In this document: piece by piece, positions 1-4,005 of the stretch
How the letters are laid out: every line of letters begins with the position of its first letter
How positions within the stretch are numbered: position 1 is the stretch's first letter
IMG/VR virus record: IMGVR_UViG_2778261417_000003
Origin: a virus
Taxonomy: Duplodnaviria; Heunggongvirae; Uroviricota; Caudoviricetes
DNA: 4,005 nt
Reading direction: 5' to 3' (one strand)
Translations under genes and position numbers: made by a program
The notes under the pieces: generated by a model
Told to the model about the DNA's origin: nothing
The model's database searches: none
What the model saw: the letters and a program-made list of their open reading frames with translations, nothing else

Positions 1-474
1 AACTGTACGATTAAGGGCATGCTGGAGGCGAATCAGGTCAGAGGCGATTTTGTTAAAACAGTATCCAAATCATTCCCGAAGAAGGCTGGTACGTGGGGTA
101 ACACGGAAACACCAAACGGGACGGTTACAGTCACCATAAGCGATGATCATAACTTTGACCGTCAAATCATTATTCCGCCCATTATTTTTAACGGTGTGGC
201 GTATGACGATCCGGGGAGCGGAAATAACCCCGGAGGCACGCGATACACGGGTTATGGTTTTGAAGTTCGCAAAAACGGCGTATTAATCGCATCCAGAGAA
301 ACTAAAGGGGCCATTCCCGGTAGTTACAGTGCAGTTATTGATATGCCGAGTGGTGGTGGTAGCGTCACTCTGGAGTTTAAGATTTTCCAGAAAGGCAATC
401 AGGGGGCAGGCAATATCACCGACTGTACGGTGATTGTGACCAAAAAAGCCGCTTCCGGCATCAGTATTCGTTGA
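1..474 (+). CDS. J: C-terminal fragment (5'-truncated by the window edge) of a J-like tail tip / host-specificity protein (central tail fibre, receptor-binding end)
   Basis: Frame 1 is open from base 1 (aac tgt acg att aag ggc atg ...) to TGA at 472-474, so the ATG at 19 in the ORF track is internal, not the true start. The gene sits immediately upstream of lom and stf, which is the lambda late-region order J-lom-stf. The product is Gly/Thr/Val-rich and looks beta-rich, as expected for a fibre tip domain. Identity as J is by synteny and general resemblance, not a verified alignment. Confidence 0.7.
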   Translation, partial: NCTIKGMLEANQVRGDFVKTVSKSFPKKAGTWGNTETPNGTVTVTISDDHNFDRQIIIPPIIFNGVAYDDPGSGNNPGGTRYTGYGFEVRKNGVLIASRETKGAIPGSYSAVIDMPSGGGSVTLEFKIFQKGNQGAGNITDCTVIVTKKAASGISIR

Positions 475-492
475 AATTGTTATAACCCATAT

Positions 493-520
493 AAGGGCAC
501 CAGAAATGGTGCCTTTTTTA
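493..520 (+). terminator. Rho-independent terminator downstream of the J-like gene
   Basis: Hairpin with stem GGCACC (496-501) pairing GGTGCC (508-513), extendable by A/U and G/U pairs to AAGGGCACC / GGTGCCUUU, 6-nt loop agaaat, followed by a run of six T (514-519). The T-run is on the + strand side only, so it is oriented for + strand transcription. Confidence 0.7.
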
Positions 521-532
521 TTGCAGAAAAGC

Positions 533-538
533 GAGAGG
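533..538 (+). promoter_or_regulatory. Shine-Dalgarno sequence for lom
   Basis: GAGAGG at 533-538, with 5 nt (taatt) between it and the ATG at 544. Confidence 0.55.
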
Positions 539-543
539 TAATT

Positions 544-615
544 ATGCGTAAACTTTATGCCGCCATTTTTTCCGCAGCCATTTGTCTGGCCGTATCCGGT
601 GCGCCTGCATGGGCA
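544..615 (+). other. Predicted signal peptide of Lom (24 aa, cleavage after AWA)
   Basis: Basic N-terminus (MRK), hydrophobic core (LYAAIFSAAICLAVSGA), and an A-x-A motif (AWA) followed by SEHQ. Confidence 0.7.
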
Positions 616-1143
616 TCTGAACATCAGTCCACGCTGAGCGCGGGGTATCTTCATGCCTCGACGAACGTTCCCGGCAGTGATGATCTGAACGGGATTAACG
701 TGAAATACCGTTATGAGTTTACGGACACACTGGGGATGGTGACGTCGTTCAGCTATGCAGGAGACAAGAATCGCCAGCTGACCCATTACAGCGATACCCG
801 CTGGTATGAAGATTCCGTGCGTAACCGCTGGTTCAGCGTGATGGCGGGGCCGTCTGTACGCGTGAATGAATGGTTCAGCGCGTATGCGATGGCAGGCGTG
901 GCTTACAGCCGTGTGTCGACTTTCTCCGGGGATTATCTCCGCGTAACTGACAACAAGGGGAAAACGCACGATGTGCTGACCGGAAGTGATGACGGTCGCC
1001 ACAGCAACACGTCTCTGGCGTGGGGAGCTGGCGTGCAGTTTAACCCGACCGAATCCGTGGCCATTGATATTGCTTATGAAGGCTCCGGCAGTGGCGACTG
1101 GCGCACTGACGGGTTCATCGTGGGTGTTGGTTATAAGTTCTGA
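544..1143 (+). CDS. lom: Lom, an Ail/Lom/PagC-family 8-stranded beta-barrel outer-membrane protein (lysogenic-conversion / virulence-associated)
   Basis: The 199-aa ORF begins MRKLYAAIFSAAICLAVSGAPAWA-SEHQSTLSAGYLHAS..., which closely matches the lambda Lom sequence as I recall it. It has a typical Sec signal peptide with an AWA-SE signal peptidase I site, alternating amphipathic beta-strand segments, and a C-terminal ...VGVGYKF ending in Phe, the usual OMP beta-barrel assembly signature. Position between J and stf matches lambda. Confidence 0.92.
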   Translation: MRKLYAAIFSAAICLAVSGAPAWASEHQSTLSAGYLHASTNVPGSDDLNGINVKYRYEFTDTLGMVTSFSYAGDKNRQLTHYSDTRWYEDSVRNRWFSVMAGPSVRVNEWFSAYAMAGVAYSRVSTFSGDYLRVTDNKGKTHDVLTGSDDGRHSNTSLAWGAGVQFNPTESVAIDIAYEGSGSGDWRTDGFIVGVGYKF

Positions 1144-1169: not shown

Positions 1170-1196
1170 AGCCCGCCGGTTCAGGCGGGCTTTTTT
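1170..1196 (+). terminator. Rho-independent terminator downstream of lom
   Basis: Perfect GC-rich stem GCCCGCC (1171-1177) pairing GGCGGGC (1184-1190), closed by an extra A-T pair (1170/1191), 6-nt loop ggttca, then TTTTTT (1191-1196). It starts 27 nt after the lom stop codon. Confidence 0.85.
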
Positions 1197-1207: not shown

Positions 1208-4005
1208 ATGGCAGTAAAGATTTCAGGTGTACTGAAAGACGGCACAGGAAAACCGGTACAGAACTGCACAATCCAGCTGAAAGCAAAACGTAACAGCACC
1301 ACGGTGGTGGTGAACACGCTGGCATCTGAAAATCCGGATGAAGCCGGGCGTTACAGTATGGACGTTGAGTACGGTCAGTACAGCGTTATTCTGTTGGTGG
1401 AGGGATTCCCGCCGTCACATGCCGGGACCATCACCGTGTATGAAGATTCTCAACCCGGTACGCTGAATGATTTTCTCGGTGCCATGACGGAGGATGATGC
1501 CCGTCCGGAGGCACTGCGCCGTTTTGAGCTGATGGTGGAAGAGGTGGCGCGTAACGCGTCCGCGGTGGCACAGAACACGGCAGCCGCGAAGAAATCAGCC
1601 AGCGATGCCAGCACATCAGCCCGTGAGGCGGCAACCCATGCGACTGATGCTGCAGGCTCAGCACGCGCAGCCAGCACGTCAGCCGGACAGGCCGCGTCGT
1701 CGGCTCAGTCAGCGTCTTCCAGCGCAGGAACGGCATCAACAAAGGCCACTGAAGCGGAAAAAAGTGCTGCCGCTGCAGAGTCCTCAAAAAGCGCGGCGGC
1801 CACCAGTGCCGGTGCCGCGAAAACGTCAGAAACGAATGCTGCAGCGTCACAAAAATCAGCAGCCACTTCTGCATCCACTGCGACGACGAAAGCGTCAGAA
1901 GCCGCCACTTCAGCCCGGGATGCGGCGGCCTCCAAAGAGGCGGCAAAATCATCAGAAACGAGCGCAGCCTCGAGCGCCAGCAGCGCAGCTTCCTCGGCAA
2001 CGGCGACAGCAAATTCTGCGAAGGCGGCCAAAACGTCCGAGACGAACGCTAAGTCTTCTGAAACGGCAGCGGGACAGAGTGCCTCAGCTGCGGCAGGCTC
2101 AAAAACAGCGGCTGCGTCGTCTGCCAGCGCCGCGTCAACAAGTGCCGGGCAGGCCTCAGCCAGTGCCACCGCCGCCGGAAAATCGGCAGAAAGCGCCGCA
2201 TCATCCGCTTCAACAGCCACAACGAAGGCTGGCGAAGCCACTGAGCAGGCCAGCGCAGCAGCGAGGTCAGCTTCCGCAGCGAAGACATCCGAAACGAACG
2301 CGAAAGCGTCGGAAACCCGTGCAGAATCCTCAAAAACGGCTGCCGCATCGTCCGCCAGTTCGGCGGCGTCATCGGCATCATCTGCGTCTGCTTCAAAAGA
2401 TGAGGCGACCAGACAGGCGTCAGCAGCGAAGGGCAGCGCCACGACAGCATCCACGAAGGCGACAGAGGCAGCTGGCAGTGCGACGGCGGCAGCACAGAGC
2501 AAAAGTACGGCGGAATCCGCGGCAACGCGCGCCGAGACAGCGGCAAAACGGGCAGAGGATATTGCATCCGCCGTGGCGCTTGAGGATGCGAGCACGACGA
2601 AAAAGGGGATAGTCCAGCTCAGCAGTGCGACCAACAGTACGTCTGAAACGCTGGCGGCAACGCCAAAGGCAGTAAAATCAGCCTATGACAATGCAGAGAA
2701 ACGTCTGCAGAAAGACCAGAACGGCGCTGATATACCCGATAAGGGACGCTTCCTGAACAACCTTAACGCGGTCAGTAAAACAGACTTTGCTGATAAGCGT
2801 GGTATGCGTTATGTGCGGGTTAACGCTCCTGCAGGTGCAACATCTGGAAAATATTACCCTGTTGTTGTTATGCGTTCTGCTGGCTCAGTAAGCGAACTGG
2901 CATCAAGGGTCATTATCACCACGGCAACGCGAACCGCAGGCGATCCGATGAATAACTGCGAGTTTAACGGATTTGTTATGCCTGGTGGCTGGACTGACAG
3001 GGGGCGTTATGCTTATGGAATGTTCTGGCAATATCAAAACAATGAACGAGCCATCCACTCAATAATGATGAGTAATAAGGGCGATGATTTGCGCTCTGTG
3101 TTCTATGTTGATGGCGCTGCTTTCCCTGTTTTTGCGTTTATCGAAGATGGCCTGTCAATATCCGCACCTGGTGCTGATCTCGTTGTTAATGATACGACCT
3201 ATAAGTTTGGTGCAACAAATCCGGCGACTGAATGTATCGCGGCGGACGTTATCCTTGATTTTAAGAGTGGGCGTGGTTTTTATGAGTCTCATTCGTTAAT
3301 CGTTAACGATAACTTGTCGTGCAAAAAACTTTTTGCCACAGACGAAATTGTAGCGCGTGGTGGTAATCAGATTCGAATGATAGGTGGGGAGTATGGTGCA
3401 TTATGGCGTAATGATGGCGCTAAAACTTACCTGCTGCTTACCAATCAAGGTGATGTTTATGGTGGCTGGAATACATTAAGACCGTTTGCTATTGATAACG
3501 CAACCGGCGAGCTGGTTATTGGAACCAAACTGTCCGCAAGTCTGAACGGTAATGCATTAACAGCAACAAAGCTGCAAACACCAAGACTGGTTTCTGGGGT
3601 TGAGTTTGATGGTTCCAGAGATATTACTTTAACCGCCGCGCACGTGGCTGCTTTTGCCAGAAGGGCAACGGATACATATGCCGATGCGGATGGTGGCGTT
3701 CCCTGGAATGCCGAATCAGGCGCTTACAATGTCACCCGCTCTGGCGACAGCTATATTCTGGTTAACTTCTATACCGGAGTCGGAAGTTGCCGGACCCTGC
3801 AGATGAAGGCGCATTACAGAAATGGAGGTCTGTTCTACCGTTCCTCAAGAGATGGCTATGGTTTTGAGGAAGGCTGGGCAGAAGTTTATACCTCGAAAAA
3901 TCTTCCACCAGAAAGCTACCCAGTTGGCGCACCAATCCCGTGGCCATCAGATACCGTTCCGTCTGGTTATGCCCTGATGCAGGGGCAGACTTTTGACAAA
4001 TCTGC
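1208..4005 (+). CDS. stf: Side tail fibre protein Stf, long mosaic form, 3'-truncated by the window edge (at least 932 codons present)
   Basis: Hand translation in frame 2 from ATG 1208 shows no stop codon through base 4005. The N-terminus [62 protein letters not shown]... matches the lambda Stf N-terminus as I recall it. A long Ala/Ser/Thr-rich repeat region follows, then a central module, and the window ends in ...[29 protein letters not shown], which resembles the conserved lambda Stf / T4 gp37-type segment. The ORF track omits it because it lacks a stop in the window. The length and central module resemble the long Stf homologues of E. coli lambdoid prophages (StfR-like) more than lambda Stf itself. 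Confidence 0.9.
1820..2572 (+). repeat. Three imperfect in-frame tandem repeat units inside stf (about 210, 252 and 290 bp), each starting with the motif K-T-S-E-T-N-A
   Basis: The units start at 1820 (aaa acg tca gaa acg aat gct), 2030 (aaa acg tcc gag acg aac gct) and 2282 (aag aca tcc gaa acg aac gcg). Each also carries a recurring SSK-x-AAA-S/T-SA submotif (near 1778, 2093, 2321). Composition is almost entirely Ala/Ser/Thr with scattered Lys/Glu, and very GC-rich at the DNA level. Confidence 0.8.

Follow-up and report, generated by a model that had tools for sequence, protein, structure and literature searches.

A contig-truncated side tail fibre gene of the stfR type and the shadow reading frames over its shaft

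Bases 1208-4005 of the window (the whole stretch of DNA analysed, 4,005 bases) almost certainly carry the 5' 82% of stf, the side tail fibre gene of a lambdoid E. coli prophage, in its Rac-type stfR allele. Thousands of E. coli genomes have genes of this type, which RefSeq names accordingly; the gene described here is ordinary, already known and biologically nothing new. The initial annotation had claimed that its frame is open from ATG 1208 to the last base and is missing from the accompanying list of open reading frames. Both statements hold: translation and a stop scan found no stop or frameshift, and the frame is unlisted because the contig ends inside the gene and the list, as its description states, leaves out any ORF reaching an end of the window without an in-window stop.

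An open frame that runs off a contig end

Frame 2 of the + strand contains 16 stops, all at or before position 1166, and none between 1167 and 4005. From ATG 1208 it reads through 932 sense codons plus 2 bases to base 4005, a run without a stop that is far beyond chance, while each of the remaining five frames contains 30 to 67 stops across the whole window. Purifying selection in this frame confirms that it is coding, with a dN/dS against four relatives of 0.08-0.15 overall, 0.09-0.17 in the shaft and about 0.1 in all segments. A second in-frame start candidate, GTG 1202, was chosen by one gene caller; K-12 and the solved lambda Stf N-domain, whose sequence opens with MAVKISG, both use the start that corresponds to ATG 1208. 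The gene order within the window is lambda-like, with the J C-terminus, lom and stf arranged as follows.

1..474, + strand: 3' end of the tail tip gene J, encoding its C-terminal receptor-binding domain, open to the left contig edge (Pfam Ig_GpJ_C, 1.3e-26)
493..516, + strand: intrinsic-terminator-like hairpin and T-run after J (10-pair stem, then TTTTATT)
544..1143, + strand: lom, Ail/Lom outer-membrane beta-barrel gene (Pfam Ail_Lom, 1.1e-119, full length; phrog_108 Lom)
1170..1191, + strand: intrinsic-terminator-like hairpin and T-run after lom (8 pairs, 7 of them G-C, then TTTTTG)
1208..4005, + strand: almost certainly stf (stfR allele), 5' 2,798 nt, codons 1-932 of ~1,132, running off the contig end (stop-free frame; 98% gapless StfR identity; dN/dS; stfR-annotated RefSeq relatives)

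The J fragment has its first frame 1 stop at 472 and is 36% identical to the lambda J C-terminus. The T-run of the lom-side hairpin ends 11 nt upstream of the stf ATG. An Rfam scan of the whole window matched nothing. In four relatives (L001, L004, L006 and L007) tfa lies directly 3' of stf; in the genome of the window its position falls beyond the contig end.

The window appears to be one entire short draft contig in which an assembly break cuts stf, so the true stop must be read from a near-identical relative. It agrees with a 4,005-bp draft contig (NOSH01000082.1) in length, in gene coordinates and in the 431 bases compared, taken from the most variable stretch. Contig L007 matches window positions 2053-4005 with 0 mismatches. 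Its Stf is 1,132 aa long with seven HxH motifs, ends at a stop 200 codons past the equivalent of the window end, and is followed by a 194-aa Tfa, whose gene overlaps that stop. Taking L007 as proxy, the full-length gene likely encodes 1,132 aa and is likely followed by tfa; the HxH tip itself is visible in L007 alone, whose sequence equals that of the window from 2053 to base 4005. The last ~200 codons, among them those of the receptor-binding tip, and tfa lie outside the window, and the claim that the gene is intact covers its first 932 codons.

The sequence beyond the window end is multi-copy in E. coli (median 3 places per genome, compared with 1 for the gene centre), and this alone explains the contig break at 4005. 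That stf instead truly ends or is disrupted here, for example through an insertion element or through an invertible segment of the Pin type rather than an assembly repeat, is improbable. Such elements are found near the genes of relatives, namely IS1 downstream of tfa in EC21Z-147, IS5 in K-12 lomR and a Pin-type recombinase after tfa in some relatives, and both kinds of element break short-read assemblies; however, L007 runs uninterrupted from the mismatch-free stretch to its stop, and the repeated downstream sequence suffices to account for the break. A greater, though still minor, chance attaches to the possibility that stf survives as a relic within a defective (Rac-like cryptic) prophage, unused for virions despite an intact-looking frame. 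Since, among named proteins, StfR of the K-12 cryptic prophage Rac comes closest, at 98% identity, the window copy could likewise belong to a defective prophage, and the contig is too short to reveal the rest of its own. Moreover, Stf is dispensable in lambda plaque formation, and stf lesions are present in relatives (a nonsense codon in ev099 and frameshifts in mEp332 and lambda PaPa). Set against this are the dN/dS of ~0.1 across all stf segments, the 96-97% identity of the phage genome records Kati, PhiR34_1, ev099 and mEp332 over the entire window, and the complete upstream tail set of L007 (tape measure, M, L, K, I and J). The reading retained below is that of a side tail fibre gene cut by an assembly repeat.

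A separate search for a Hin/Gin-type crossover core gave a weak negative, with none in the window, none in L004 and, for L007, none in tfa or at the 3' end of stf, and an invertible segment at the contig end was rejected as a candidate on this basis. The lone 1-mismatch match to the core in L007 sits inside J.

Domain layout and relation to known tail fibres

The initial annotation had proposed a tail fibre product similar to lambda Stf or StfR, and the comparisons bear this out. The product is identical to K-12 Rac StfR (b1372, NP_415890.2, 1,120 aa) at 913 of 932 residues (98%) without gaps, differing by 19 substitutions, and is 80% identical to lambda orf-401 over its first 352 aa, the N-terminal half of lambda Stf. 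Pfam and PHROG agree: tail fibre families give the best PHROG matches, and Pfam phage_tail_N (PF08400) aligns over its full profile (1-134) with aa 1-134 at E = 7.8e-72, scoring 240 bits against a cutoff of 26.6. RefSeq relatives carry the annotation stfR, and an NCBIfam scan of the product matched no family. Further along the product, Pfam Gp34_trimer matches at E = 2.6e-27, and Collar matches at E = 4.9e-4 with 20.4 bits against a cutoff of 24, a score below the cutoff because the window end truncates the domain and leaves profile positions 1-26 of 57. The resulting layout is given below.

1208..1489, + strand: Stf N-terminal domain, aa 1-94 (PDB 9e7m/9mgh, aa 1-94, E = 4.7e-52; Pfam phage_tail_N, aa 1-134)
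1511..2572, + strand: predicted Ala/Ser/Thr-rich heptad coiled-coil shaft, ~aa 102-455, uninterrupted (Ala periodicity, registers)
2528..2773, + strand: conserved tail-fibre junction motif, aa 441-522, common to Mu S and lambda Stf (PDB 5yvq/8ju3; lambda orf-401 alignment)
2774..3193, + strand: segment without a Pfam domain, aa 523-662, within a ~400-aa module missing from lambda Stf
3194..3493, + strand: T4 gp34 C-terminal trimerisation-like domain, aa 663-762 (Pfam PF21446, 2.6e-27; PDB 4uxe/5nxf/5nxh/9x3r, aa 706-776)
3632..3928, + strand: Mu S-like distal domain, aa 809-907 (PDB 8ju3 alignment)
3926..4003, + strand: start of a phage tail collar domain, aa 907-932, truncated at the contig end (Pfam Collar below threshold; PDB 2xgf; lambda orf-314)

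The N-domain of Ur-lambda Stf assembles into a collar of 12 copies, by which four fibre trimers are anchored at the gpV/gpM tail junction, and the coiled coil of that protein begins at residue 102 (PMC12617516). In the window product, the N-domain is likewise followed by what is predicted from residue periodicity to be a long coiled-coil shaft. Alanine recurs every 3.5 residues over aa 101-460 with a power of 9.93, against a maximum of 1.58 in shuffles (0 of 2,000 as strong), and the heptad registers are occupied by Ala at 44 of 45, Ala at 33 of 46 and Ser at 36 of 46 positions in a shaft that is 73% Ala/Ser/Thr. This repetition lies at the level of the heptad pattern and not of tandem DNA copies: Tandem Repeats Finder reports a single trivial 9-nt repeat in the shaft DNA, and a repeat search of the shaft recovers only families of 63-76% identity. 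Past the junction motif, aa 523-662 have no Pfam match and no alignment to lambda orf-401 or orf-314, and a match to phrog_36614 spans aa 456-610.

K-12 StfR shares with the product its N-domain, shaft length, distal modules and position after lom. The two loci differ in that, in K-12 Rac, IS5 splits lomR and J has been lost, whereas the window retains lom and the J 3' end intact; the C-terminal proxy from L007 is 1,132 aa long, compared with 1,120 aa for K-12 StfR. Ur-lambda Stf, which corresponds to the frameshift-split orf-401 and orf-314 of lambda PaPa (PDB 9E7M/9MGH), is more than 90% identical to the product over N-domain residues 1-94. It also resembles the product in its heptad shaft, junction motif, collar motif (aa 70-98 of orf-314 are 83% identical to that of the product) and J-lom-stf-tfa order, for which the product's tfa is taken from relatives. 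The product's shaft is 105 aa (15 heptads) longer than that of lambda, and its residues ~500-900 hold a ~400-aa gp34/Mu S-like module, absent from lambda, between the junction motif and the collar. For the window allele, lambda's OmpC receptor is not to be assumed.

Mu tail fibre protein S (PDB 5YVQ, 8JU3) shares the junction motif at aa 441-522 and the distal domain at aa 809-907. Mu S lacks a lambda-type N-domain and a long Ala/Ser shaft, and the phage that encodes it has a contractile tail and an invertible G segment. T4 gp34 (PDB 4UXE, 5NXF) shares the C-terminal trimerisation-like domain at aa 663-762. The comparison with T4 gp37 that had been suggested at the outset succeeds at the collar motif, where residues 27-57 of PDB 2XGF align with aa 902-932 at E = 1.9e-10, and gives no match elsewhere; the needle region of gp37 falls past the window end. 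By sequence, the product shares a module with gp37 but appears not to belong to that family in its entirety. With both T4 proteins it has only short modules in common, and architecture, virion attachment and length differ.

Shadow frames over the shaft

The ORF list contains the four long alternative ORFs that the initial annotation had singled out as spurious, warning that they could yield fake Arg-rich or Ala-rich proteins. The two compositions were found as described, in the first two entries below.

1605..2612, + strand: shadow ORF, 335 aa, 27% Arg, not a gene (dN/dS 1.6-4.9; shuffle length; no PHROG match)
1705..2634, - strand: shadow ORF, 309 aa, 36% Ala, very probably not a gene (lambda orf206b / phrog_560 counterpart; shuffle length; K-12 stop)
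1431..2012, - strand: shadow ORF, 193 aa, not a gene (dN/dS 2.5-4.7; internal stops in PhiR34_1 and ev099)
2049..2567, - strand: shadow ORF, 172 aa, not a gene (dN/dS 2.5-6.9; internal stop in K-12; phrog_3324 match; annotated gp24 in phage ev099)

The evidence supports the view that these ORFs are composition by-products of the Stf shaft. A segment that is 73% Ala/Ser/Thr, written in GCN, TCN, AGY and ACN codons, leaves few stops in four of the five other frames and so produces four long overlapping ORFs. Lengths like those of all four also arise in synonymous-codon shuffles of stf. For three of them the spurious status is well supported by a dN/dS of 1.6-6.9, and the frame of 1605..2612 is in addition open for 359 codons, compared with 355 +/- 9 in synonymous-codon shuffles. 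For 1705..2634 the case is less decisive, and dN/dS had to be rejected as a universal discriminator of shadow ORFs: its value of 0.12-0.22 in this frame is uninformative because the third codon positions coincide with the wobble positions of stf. The verdict on this ORF is drawn instead from a shuffle test, in which the Stf protein was held fixed and synonymous codons were redrawn, and from an internal stop in K-12.

It is accordingly only a very slight probability that we assign to the antisense frame at 1705..2634 (the orf206b / phrog_560 family) being a genuine overlapping gene that encodes an Ala/Val/Asp-rich protein from the opposite strand of the shaft. The window, L001, L003, L004 and L007 all have this frame open and lambda has it open in part, its product matches the full phrog_560 profile at 4.8e-120, and its dN/dS is low; however, the wobble overlap with stf makes a low dN/dS automatic, and the PHROG family is mere evidence of repeated gene calling. 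The frame is open for 313 codons against 293 +/- 69 in the shuffles, giving no sign of selection that keeps it open, the K-12 copy is interrupted, and the product is of low complexity (36% Ala, 13% Val and 11% Asp). We therefore retain the shadow-frame reading for all four ORFs.

Proposed function and consequences for annotation

Ur-lambda Stf forms trimeric virion fibres and speeds adsorption (PMC12617516). By homology with that protein, the window product would trimerise, assemble through its N-terminal collar and contribute to adsorption. Residues ~102-455 would make up an unbroken heptad coiled coil with an Ala core, roughly 50 nm long, which keeps the distal part off the tail, and this distal part would be a mosaic of modules also present in Mu S, T4 gp34 and T4 gp37. 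The end of the fibre, outside the contig, would consist of the collar and a His-x-His needle dependent on the downstream Tfa chaperone. Reversible binding of the needle to a surface receptor may then lead to quicker adsorption, ahead of J engaging its own receptor. For residues 500-900 the lambda model is extrapolated, because this module has no lambda counterpart. The literature on a StfR receptor or on StfR experiments yielded incidental mentions only, in recombination and ChIP papers.

The practical value of the case lies in annotation quality. A gene truncated at a contig end will always be missed by a stop-to-stop ORF list, and in short draft contigs the end often falls within a tail fibre gene because the 3' ends of these genes are multi-copy. 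At the same time, the Ala/Ser-rich coiled-coil shaft of Stf reliably yields ORFs of 170-335 codons in other frames. The false calls of which the initial annotation warned have already entered public records: shadow-frame translations are deposited as lambda orf206b and as ev099 gp22-24, three "hypothetical" genes, and PHROG families 560, 3324 and 24241, of unknown function, are translations of Stf shadow frames. Marking phrog_560, phrog_3324 and phrog_24241 as probable antisense artefacts would reduce the false "dark matter" in phage protein catalogues.

The open frame and its product

Frame 2 of the + strand contains 16 stop codons, every one at or before position 1166, and none from 1167 to the last base. 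Translation from ATG 1208 yields 932 sense codons and two leftover bases, and both checks uphold the initial annotation's reading of an uninterrupted frame from 1208 to 4005. As that annotation had also observed, the gene, stf, is absent from the mechanical ORF list, which does not show frame 2 because it leaves out, by design, ORFs running past an end. A second in-frame start candidate, GTG 1202, is the one chosen by a public gene caller. GGGGTGAAT lies upstream of ATG 1208, and the encoded N-terminus, MAVKISG, is shared with K-12 StfR and the solved N-domain of lambda Stf. The features of the product and its surroundings are as follows:

Features of stf and its neighbourhood
Stf residues 1-134: phage_tail_N (Pfam, E = 7.8e-72)
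Stf residues 663-762: Gp34_trimer (Pfam, E = 2.6e-27)
Stf residues 907-932: first 26 profile positions of Collar (Pfam, below cutoff)
Upstream of stf, + strand: J, last 157 codons (Ig_GpJ_C, E = 1.3e-26)
Upstream of stf, + strand: lom, full-length (Ail_Lom, E = 1.1e-119)
493..516, + strand: intrinsic-terminator-like hairpin and T-run, 5' of lom
1170..1191, + strand: intrinsic-terminator-like hairpin and T-run, 3' of lom, the T-run ending 11 nt before the stf start codon

The Collar match falls under the Pfam cutoff because the window stops there. The top PHROG matches are likewise tail fibre families, and the 1,120-aa StfR from the Rac prophage of K-12 matches the product at 913/932 of its first 932 residues without gaps. 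Lambda orf-401, an N-terminal fragment of Stf, is 80% identical across 352 residues, and similarity resumes at the collar motif, where residues 70-98 of lambda orf-314 align with stf residues 904-932. Pfam, PHROG, K-12 StfR and lambda Stf comparisons thus agree on the tail fibre identity first proposed from sequence. The J-lom-stf order also agrees with J-lom-stf-tfa in lambda. Of 5,426 complete E. coli genomes, 1,162 contain at least 80% of the window; the top full-length match among them is 97.4% identical and carries the RefSeq gene name stfR. Records of phage genomes, among them ev099, Kati, PhiR34_1 and mEp332, carry the window at 96-97% identity. The gene is already known: it is an allele of stfR that a break in the draft assembly has cut short, and it reflects ordinary biology; the initial observation is confirmed and its interpretation supported overall.

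A terminator-bracketed gene is the classic 'moron' layout, and lom fits it. The second hairpin's T-run stands so close to the stf start that expression of stf presumably relies on terminator-resistant late transcription. J is also cut by the contig edge, with frame 1 open from base 1 to a stop at 472-474 (1..474, +); the ORF list starts this 3' end only at an internal ATG (19..474). The receptor-binding domain at the J C-terminus has only 36% identity to the LamB-binding C-terminus of lambda J, so the central fibre probably recognises another receptor. A 239-aa GTG-started ORF (283..1002, -) spans the J 3' end and lom and is open in the relative contig described below as well. Since no PHROG family matches it and two well-supported genes occupy the same DNA, it is presumably spurious.

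Truncation at the contig end

The 4,005-bp NCBI draft contig NOSH01000082.1 (GCA_002521985.1) encodes the window's exact Lom protein, has gene coordinates equal to the window's, and is identical across the stretch compared, the window's most variable 431 bases. On these coordinates and bases, the window is almost certainly the entire contig. A relative contig (GCA_035879935.1) differs at 39 positions, two of them at 135 and 138, and is without differences from 2053 to 4005. The other 37 crowd into ~400 nt of shaft (window 1656..2052, relative 7113..7509), which resembles a patch left by recombination or gene conversion within the repetitive shaft. In this relative, stf continues for 200 further codons to a protein of 1,132 aa, with seven His-x-His motifs in the tail; the stf stop is overlapped by the next gene, a 194-aa tail fibre assembly gene.

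Of 5,426 E. coli genomes, 5,232 contain the sequence just beyond the window end (stf 3' end and tfa), with a median of three sites per genome; the gene centre (2900-3800) is found in 1,819, with a median of one site. We infer that a short-read assembly broke at the switch from unique to multi-copy prophage sequence. An invertible Pin segment as the cause of the contig end found no support in a search with a Hin/Gin-type crossover-core consensus, a weak negative.

Anatomy of the fibre protein

Residues 1-94 align with the N-domain of Ur-lambda Stf in PDB 9E7M/9MGH, where twelve copies assemble into a collar at the gpV/gpM junction that holds four trimeric fibres (PMC12617516). Residues ~102-455, encoded at 1511..2572 (+) and 73% Ala, Ser and Thr, make up the lambda model's proximal coiled coil. 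Their 3.5/7-residue periodicity is very strong (Ala power 9.93 at period 3.5, against a maximum of 1.58 among 2,000 shuffles), and a fixed heptad register across residues 135-455 places Ala at 44/45 of one position, Ala at 33/46 of another and Ser at 36/46 of a third; the array therefore contains no stutter. The lambda shaft is shorter by exactly 105 residues (15 heptads), and copies of one DNA repeat family in the shaft are spaced in multiples of 21 nt (126, 84, 252, 21). Shaft length therefore seems to change by whole heptads, preserving the coiled-coil register. Comparison with K-12, EC21Z-147, PhiR34_1 and ev099 gives stf-frame dN/dS values of 0.08-0.15 for the frame as a whole, 0.00-0.09 for the N-domain, 0.09-0.17 for the shaft and 0.09-0.23 for the distal part, so the low-complexity shaft is genuine constrained coding sequence.

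After the shaft lies a conserved junction motif shared with Mu protein S, followed by a ~400-residue module, absent from lambda, in which one domain is a gp34-like trimerisation domain and another is Mu S-like. The last element in the window is a gp37-type collar; the comparison with T4 gp37 that the initial annotation proposed gives a match at this motif only. By homology with lambda, the fibre tip, which lies beyond the window, would contact a surface receptor reversibly, and this contact would make adsorption faster; lambda Stf uses OmpC and gains 10- to 30-fold in adsorption (PMC12617516).

Alternative-frame ORFs over the shaft

Four long alternative ORFs, listed as the initial annotation described, all sit on the stf shaft:

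Alternative ORFs
1605..2612, + strand: 335 aa
1705..2634, - strand: 309 aa
1431..2012, - strand: 193 aa
2049..2567, - strand: 172 aa

Redrawing synonymous codons with the Stf amino-acid sequence fixed leaves the +1 frame open for 355 +/- 9 codons (359 in the real sequence), the antisense frame of 1705..2634 for 293 +/- 69 (313 in the real sequence), and a third long frame for 108 +/- 36 (189 in the real sequence; p ~0.03, which is not significant when five frames are considered). Over the distal half, which is not repetitive, alternative-frame open stretches reach at most 51-88 codons. Own-frame dN/dS is 1.6-4.9 for 1605..2612 (+), 2.5-4.7 for 1431..2012 (-) and 2.5-6.9 for 2049..2567 (-), and two of these three have internal stops in some relatives. 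The value for 1705..2634 (-), 0.12-0.22, is low automatically, because its third codon positions share bases with those of stf (both 1 mod 3); its K-12 counterpart contains an internal stop. From shuffle lengths, dN/dS and internal stops, we take all four ORFs to be shadows of the stf shaft, spurious as first proposed, with a small residual doubt for 1705..2634 (-).

The risk of annotating a fake protein, also raised initially, is real in lambda, ev099 and PHROG records. In the lambda reference record (NC_001416), orf206b is a minus-strand annotation (20147..20767, -) nested in orf-401. It corresponds to 1705..2634 (-), to which it is 82% identical over 118 residues in the matching relative frame, and a CRISPRi essentiality table (PMC10695390) still includes it among its genes. 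The ORF 1705..2634 (-) matches the whole profile of phrog_560 ('unknown function') at 4.8e-120, and phrog_3324 and phrog_24241 (also 'unknown function') match shadow ORFs too. These three families and orf206b are probably artefacts of repeatedly mis-called antisense shaft ORFs.

RefSeq phage ev099 carries three minus-strand "hypothetical proteins" over the shaft and stf as two fragments only, with a CGA-to-TGA nonsense change at Stf codon 723 (NC_049953, 5874..5876). The mEp332 record leaves the shaft mostly without annotation and has a 1-nt shaft deletion (PV340541, near 4257; alignment A1 column 550, ~window 1757). These lesions, real or apparent, may reflect side-fibre loss in propagation or sequencing errors, and they have a parallel in laboratory lambda, whose stf is frameshifted. 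The stf case offers a modest practical lesson for annotation.
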